From Naegleria gruberi (taxonomy: Eukaryota): 1,241 bases of DNA. The notes under the pieces were generated by a model. That model was not told where the DNA came from and made no database searches. It worked only from the letters and a program-made list of their open reading frames with translations. The stretch lies in the NCBI GenBank assembly GCA_000004985.1, contig GG739483.1; one strand, written 5' to 3'. Below are positions 1 to 509 of the stretch, piece by piece; positions within the stretch are counted from its first letter, which is position 1, and the number at the start of each line of letters is the position of its first letter. Position numbers and translations under genes: made by a program.

Positions 1-105
1 AAGATGGTTAGCTGTAATTTCATTGGTGAAGGATATACTAATATCGCAAACATGACTCAACTAAAGGTCTTTCACTTAACCGCTTGCTCTTCCCAACGAC
101 AATAA
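1..105 (+). CDS. Probable upstream continuation of the same gene in frame 1 (partial at the window edge, ends TAA 103-105); joins the frame-3 ORF only through a frame interruption near 85-101
   Basis: Frame 1 is open from nt 1 to TAA at 103-105, translating KMVSCNFIGEGYTNIANMTQLKVFHLTACSSQRQ*. Its codons are common yeast codons (GGT, GAA, GTT, AAT, ATT, ACT). The motif LKVFHLTAC fits the LxxLxLxxC core of cysteine-type LRRs, and the frame-3 ORF continues with ..TTIIDPFHIFL, which is ITDxxLxxL-like, immediately downstream. Both frames are open across 42-105. Confidence 0.3.
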   Translation, partial: KMVSCNFIGEGYTNIANMTQLKVFHLTACSSQRQ

Positions 106-509
106 TTGATCCATTCCACATTTTTTTGGGTGGTTCATTAATTTCACTGGAGAAGTTTGAATACACTTCATTGCACTTCAGAAACGACTTTTGTTTACCA
201 AACGACCTAGTTAACCTTCCCAAATTGACATTTTTTGAAACCTGTTCTCCTACTTATATTGATTTGCAGAAACTTTTACAAAATTCTAAAGTAGCTACAT
301 TAGATCTTTCTTTTGAGTTTTTTTTGAATTTCGAGTTCTTGGACAACCTCTTAACTAAAAATCATTCCATTACCCAGCTAATACTACCACCAAAGGCCGA
401 AGAAAGGTTCAAAGATCAAAGAAAATCATACCTCAAACAAATATCTAGAATTCAAAAACTGTTCAATATTCAAGTTTCATTTAGCAAACATATGCTTGTG
501 TTTGAATAA
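42..509 (+). CDS. 3'/C-terminal portion of a protein-coding gene; product hypothetical, with leucine-rich-repeat-like (cysteine-containing, F-box-associated type) periodicity; no in-frame ATG, so the start must lie upstream via another frame or exon
   Basis: Frame 3 is open from the TAA at 39-41 to the TAA at 507-509, i.e. 155 sense codons. For about 30% GC DNA the chance of this is roughly 0.927^155, under 1e-5. The ORF-track start at 84 is TTG, not ATG; the only in-frame ATG is at 496-498. Codon usage is yeast-like (AGA/AGG for Arg, TTG/TTA for Leu, GGT, CCA, GAA). Repeated LxxLxL/F..C..(I/Y)(I/T)D..L..L spacing, e.g. LPKLTFFETCSPTYIDLQKLL and FLDNLLTKNHSITQLIL, resembles CC-type LRRs. Codons 42-83 in frame 3 include two rare CGC Arg codons, so the true coding frame upstream of about 85 is probably frame 1. 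Confidence 0.6.
   Translation, partial: YRKHDSTKGLSLNRLLFPTTIIDPFHIFLGGSLISLEKFEYTSLHFRNDFCLPNDLVNLPKLTFFETCSPTYIDLQKLLQNSKVATLDLSFEFFLNFEFLDNLLTKNHSITQLILPPKAEERFKDQRKSYLKQISRIQKLFNIQVSFSKHMLVFE

Follow-up and report, generated by a model that had tools for sequence, protein, structure and literature searches.

The window, that is, the whole 1,241-nt stretch of DNA analyzed here, is AT rich, with a GC content of about 37% at its left end and of 17 to 28% downstream. On its plus strand, frame 3 shows no stop codon from nt 42 to 506, a run of 155 codons closed by a TAA codon at nt 507 to 509, and a run as long as this in any of the six frames appeared in only 1 of 2,000 mononucleotide shuffles of the window. 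The sole ATG in frame 3 lies at nt 492 to 494, with four sense codons after it, and the other candidate starts are all TTG or GTG. Frame 1, for its part, is open from nt 1, the edge of the window, to a TAA codon at nt 103 to 105, as seen in its translation. These results were in agreement with the preliminary description of this DNA, which had reported a nonrandom frame-3 open reading frame (ORF) of 155 codons ending at nt 509, a single ATG placed four codons ahead of its stop, and a frame 1 open from the window edge up to the same TAA. Two rare CGC codons had also been claimed for frame 3. Both codons are indeed there (nt 45 to 47 and 81 to 83, read off the sequence), but their rarity could not be upheld, given that the secure part of the ORF contains four Arg codons, all of them AGA or AGG, which are too few for such a statement.

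The two frames can be divided into the parts of one gene. The upstream part, read in frame 1 (KMVSCNFIGEGYTNIANMTQLK), occupies nt 1 to 66, and the 5' portion of the gene extends past the left edge of the window. The downstream part, read in frame 3 (GLSLNRLLFPTT...FNIQVSFSKHMLVFE), runs from nt 66 to 506, as delimited by tblastn, phmmer, blastn, and pN/pS, and includes the encoded peptides LTFFETCSPTYIDLQK and LFNIQVSFSK; the TAA at nt 507 to 509 closes it in the frame-3 translation and is the stop codon of the gene. Between both parts, nt 64 to 92 delimit the interval of a net −1/+2 frame change, as indicated by a junction scan, the net indel, and one-base repairs, and the frame-1 TAA at nt 103 to 105 would act as a premature stop if the sequence were read unchanged. 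Inside the coding region, nt 307 to 332 form a weak tandem repeat with an 11-nt unit (TTTCTTTTGAA; 2.4 copies, 80% match), which corresponds to the stretch FEFFLNFEF, where the homolog described below has a 5-residue insertion.

When the frame-3 ORF was searched exhaustively with phmmer against 1.84 billion representative proteins, one real relative emerged, the 551-aa hypothetical protein C9374_013657 of Naegleria lovaniensis (XP_044541877.1/KAG2372702.1), with an E value of 1.3e-21 and 49% identity at aa 418 to 550 of 551. A second N. lovaniensis copy, C9374_000732 (XP_044551874.1), is more than 90% identical to the first and belongs to the same cluster. When C9374_013657 was compared with the window by tblastn, frame +3 matched over nt 84 to 482 (aa 418 to 550; E value, 1e-31; 45% identity), and frame +1 matched over nt 4 to 66 and further (aa 394 to 414 and further; E value, 3e-5). 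At the DNA level, blastn against N. lovaniensis gave 67.5% identity over the 370 nt from nt 114 to 483. The short frame-1 peptide (nt 1 to 66) aligned with aa 393 to 414 of C9374_013657 with a score of 67 and 10 of 21 residues identical, compared with a maximum of 40 among 5,000 shuffled peptides and with scores of 20 to 21 for the remaining two frames.

Both N. lovaniensis genes are single-exon, uninterrupted ORFs of 1,656 nt (551 codons), and in tblastx both segments of the window fell in one subject frame for either copy. Because the frame-1 and frame-3 matches are collinear on one homolog, the two pieces belong to a single gene, the frame of which shifts by a net −1/+2. This had been the proposal of the preliminary description, and the alignment across the junction that it had set beforehand as the test was carried out: the homolog proved collinear through the junction and, in its own genome, is encoded without any change of frame. 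Against N. lovaniensis, pN/pS was 0.28 in the frame-1 segment and 0.53 in the frame-3 segment (dS, ∼0.8), and both segments appear to be under protein-level constraint, that is, purifying selection. Judged from these comparisons, nt 1 to 509 constitute the 3' quarter of a lineage-restricted single-exon protein-coding gene. In turn, C9374_013657 gains its first detectable relative outside N. lovaniensis, which supports its being a real gene.

The fungal proteomes that had been suggested as the comparison set turned out to be the wrong choice, the sole homolog coming from Naegleria (Heterolobosea), and a fungal origin was ruled out on the same grounds. The source of the DNA is instead a heterolobosean amoeba related to Naegleria. 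Its protein identity of 45 to 49% to N. lovaniensis and its low GC content, set beside the GC values in PMC6125883, would fit a Naegleria species more distant from N. lovaniensis or a relative of the genus. Word-indexed protein searches with the fused peptide, the homolog, and the minus-strand ORF described below returned nothing except the homolog itself. A 1,137-aa repeat protein that was retrieved by phmmer (E value, 2e-5) was discarded as spurious; it matches the IFLGGS stretch only, ten times. Viral and metagenome contigs yielded no relative in scans by DNA or by protein pattern, which argues against a giant-virus origin, and Rfam and tRNA scans of the window gave no match. None of the 11 possible ORF products of the window had an exact match in a collection of 15 billion proteins; the lack of a deposited protein fits either a locus at which gene calling failed or a genome that was deposited unannotated.

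The two N. lovaniensis loci are L001, with the gene at nt 5001 to 6656 (contig PYSW02000070.1), and L002, with the gene at nt 10001 to 11656 (contig PYSW02000011.1). Each copy lies within 3 to 5 kb of a contig end, and upstream neighbors of 293 and 366 aa are common to both. Since the copies are near-identical, are close to contig ends, and have the same upstream neighbors, the data suggest either uncollapsed haplotigs or a segment that was duplicated and may be subtelomeric. In L001, no long ORF occurs within 3 kb past the end of the gene.

To the right of the gene, the minus strand of the window contains a 98-aa ORF (nt 538 to 888; ATG at nt 834, stop codon at nt 540 to 538) within a frame that is free of stops for 116 codons, a run equalled in 6 of 3,000 shuffles of nt 510 to 1241. 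Its stop lies 29 nt from that of the plus-strand gene, so that both form a convergent pair. The predicted product has hydrophobic stretches at about aa 17 to 40 and 57 to 80, resembling a small two-pass membrane protein. Pfam and protein searches with it revealed neither a homolog nor an exact match, and the N. lovaniensis loci lack this ORF. It may represent a genuine orphan gene, or else have arisen by chance in DNA that is rich in T. Further downstream, a perfect (AT)17 microsatellite (nt 977 to 1010) lies where the window is richest in AT (GC content, ∼17%), and a minus-strand frame (nt 1152 to 1241) enters at the right edge and stops at a TAG codon at nt 1154 to 1152 (GSNNLYGKSKENEFKERTNFVKILQKHCY*). 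This last frame could represent the 3' terminus of a further gene.

To locate the frame change, frame 1 up to nt j was joined to frame 3 from nt j + 3, and each fusion was aligned to both homologs. The optimum of this junction scan was flat, with scores of 321 to 330 for j values of 66 to 87; the scores were lower for j values of 93 to 102 (310 to 321) and also for those of 60 or less. Frame 3 resembles the homolog already at nt 66 (K-GLSLN--RLL versus K-TLVLCYPRLL), and relative to N. lovaniensis the window stretch from nt 66 to 114 is longer by a net 8 nt, which is 2 modulo 3. The supported interval for the frame change is about nt 64 to 92, with nt 66 to 87 slightly favored. This interval contains four short homopolymers, AAA (nt 63 to 65), GG (nt 66 and 67), TTT (nt 70 to 72), and CCC (nt 91 to 93), and the addition of one base to any of them results in a continuous ORF across nt 1 to 509 that is collinear with the homolog.

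Other approaches did not refine the position. Codon-position composition contained no locating signal, all switch positions falling within about 3 bits, and a frame-breaking 2-nt gap placed by MAFFT at nt 112 and 113 cannot be the true site because it lies downstream of the frame-1 stop. The site is poorly resolved because the homologs come from a single species, in two copies that share more than 90% identity. The switch had previously been placed at nt 85 to 101; this range overlaps the supported interval in part, and the scan slightly favors nt 66 to 87. The 14-nt site that had been singled out, tcttcccaacgaca (nt 88 to 101), lies at or past the edge of the interval and, at this poor resolution, is a less likely site rather than a rejected one, since junctions at nt 93 to 102 score 10 to 15 BLOSUM units lower.

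The nature of the encoded protein is less clear. It had been described as LRR-like, a class that was not demonstrated here: the window peptides matched no Pfam family at an E value of 10 or below, the leucine-rich-repeat (LRR) matches of the homolog were subthreshold, and counts of the LxxLxL motif showed no excess over those of shuffles, although the matches in the C-terminal half are spaced every 21 to 32 residues. In the homolog, Pfam gave, always below threshold, an F-box-like match at aa 26 to 55 (E value, 0.069), LRR_At5g56370 (E value, 6e-4; 19.9 bits, with a cutoff of 27), and LRR_4 (12.8 bits). A search of solved-structure sequences with the homolog found no relevant relative, and its full-length single-sequence AlphaFold model (pLDDT, 38.6) was unusable. 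The model of the C-terminal 141 residues of the window copy reached a pLDDT of 64, with strands and helices in alternation. Foldseek found no match for it in the PDB at an E value of 0.001 or below; the weak, nonsignificant fold matches include SKP2 and FBXL17 amid many unrelated alpha/beta folds. The likeness to proteins of the FBXL type, such as SKP2 and FBXL17, would reside in the subthreshold F-box-like and LRR matches of the homolog and in the alternating strands and helices of the window model. Unlike that type, the homolog falls below every curated threshold, and the fold matches of the window model are nonsignificant. An F-box plus leucine-rich-repeat architecture is possible for this gene family, as a lead rather than a finding.

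The reading that we prefer, to which we assign about an even chance, is a real and evolutionarily young frameshift, which would make the locus a recent pseudogene or an allele that has lost its function. According to it, the frame would have been broken in the DNA by the net loss of one base (or the gain of two) within nt 64 to 92, and the most economical cause would be a one-base contraction of AAA (nt 63 to 65), GG (nt 66 and 67), or TTT (nt 70 to 72). Translation of the unaltered sequence would then end at the TAA at nt 103 to 105, and some 135 conserved codons at the C terminus, among them those of the FNIQVSF end, would go untranslated. We infer that the organism itself carries the indel, which would not stem from the assembly, and hence that the gene has been inactivated or truncated.

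The downstream codons bear on the age of such a lesion. The 134 codons past the frame-1 stop contain no stop codon in spite of 63 single-base routes to one, and a neutral untranslated tail would be expected to have acquired one by the time it reached about 0.14 substitutions per site (95% bound), a figure to be set against the dS of about 0.8 to N. lovaniensis. Because the downstream ORF is intact, the lesion must be young (less than about 0.14), or be an assembly error, or be bypassed. No sign of relaxed constraint was detected in these 134 codons, in which there is no stop and for which pN/pS against the distant homolog is 0.53. For a frameshift pseudogene, a tail of this kind is compatible only with a very young lesion.

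The intact tail is also the outcome expected of a sequencing or assembly error and in this respect counts against a real lesion. If such an artifact had occurred, the true genome would carry one more base in a short homopolymer and the gene would be intact, as it is in N. lovaniensis. We consider this explanation credible, if somewhat improbable. It would account for the repair of the collinear ORF by a single base in any of the runs at nt 63 to 65, 66 and 67, 70 to 72, or 91 to 93, for a downstream ORF that is wholly intact, and for purifying selection on both segments. Long-read and pyrosequencing assemblies typically retain errors in which a homopolymer is called one base too short; however, the runs present here are only 2 to 3 bases long, and such errors are uncommon at that length.

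There is little probability that the frame change is real but bypassed in expression, either by removal of nt 67 to 152 from the RNA or by a −1 slip at nt 63 to 66. Rescue by splicing, as an ordinary intron or through recent "intronization," is the less improbable of these two routes, and we still regard it as very unlikely. Nine GT...AG combinations restore the frame, and the most intron-like of them is the 86-nt plus-strand segment from nt 67 to 152, which begins with GT and ends with AG and whose removal would fuse frames 1 and 3 with no intervening stop codon. Its excision would shorten the coding sequence by roughly a repeat unit (1 nt less than 29 codons), yielding ...NIANMTQLK|KFEYTSLHF... 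and keeping the repeat register (LK|VF... becomes LE|KF...). The segment is similar in length to the median N. lovaniensis intron, which is reported as 80 bp (PMC6125883). Against splicing, the segment encodes in frame 3 the peptide FHIFLGGSLISLE, in which 9 of 13 aa are conserved with the single-exon homolog (pN/pS, 0.30), and the DNA of nt 127 to 161 ranks with the best conserved at this locus. Moreover, the donor, GTCTTT, fits poorly with the GTRAGT-type consensus used for comparison, no pyrimidine tract precedes the AG, and with nine frame-restoring combinations one would be expected by chance. An intron confined to the homology gap (nt 66 to 90) would measure less than 25 nt. Splicing is thus disfavored because FHIFLGGSLISLE is conserved in a homologous gene without an intron and because a gap-confined intron would be so short.

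Programmed −1 frameshifting, in which tRNA-Lys would slip from AAG (nt 64 to 66) to AAA (nt 63 to 65) to give ...MTQLK-GLSLNRLL..., is hardly to be believed: its product is the best aligned and has no gap against the homolog, and A-AAG is a slip-prone tetranucleotide in bacteria, but nt 42 to 105 contain no X XXY YYZ heptamer, as had been noted earlier (the best junction reads A CUA AAG), the 126 nt from nt 55 fold like shuffles in a test of secondary structure without pseudoknots (minimum free energy of −17 versus a mean of −17.2 kcal/mol; z, 0.07), Rfam gave no match, the site is not conserved, both N. lovaniensis copies being in one frame, and we know of no case of programmed −1 frameshifting in Heterolobosea. 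The earlier judgment that a pseudogene or a sequencing indel was the simplest explanation and programmed frameshifting an unlikely one therefore held, the homolog being collinear and in one frame.

The apparently start-less ORF of 155 codons is thus the 3' end of an amoeba gene restricted to its lineage, and its locus is best annotated as a single disrupted gene, or else corrected on resequencing. It would be of wider interest only if the frame change were truly bypassed, by intronization or by ribosomal slippage; in that event the conserved C-terminal 118 to 140 residues would still be produced, and with splicing an intronized repeat unit would rescue a frameshifted repeat protein.

Compared with known systems, the window copy is closest to C9374_013657 and C9374_000732, the sole detectable homolog family, with 45 to 49% identity over the last 155 residues, the same order of segments, and the conserved C-terminal FNIQVSF in common. 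The N. lovaniensis genes are read in one frame of 551 codons, whereas the window copy has the frame change at nt 64 to 92 and small in-frame indels, and the N. lovaniensis protein stops 7 codons before the window copy, after FNIQVSF; downstream of the gene, no neighbors common to the window and the N. lovaniensis loci were found. As for the type of lesion, in contrast with the young or unitary frameshift pseudogenes already described ("disabled ORFs," or the "blocked reading frames" of yeast), the disablement is known here from one sequence and the 3' end of the gene alone is in view. The likeness to them consists of one frame-breaking indel in a coding sequence that is otherwise intact and collinear with its homolog. 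The locus thus represents no new mechanism but either a young pseudogene of the ordinary kind or an error of sequencing.
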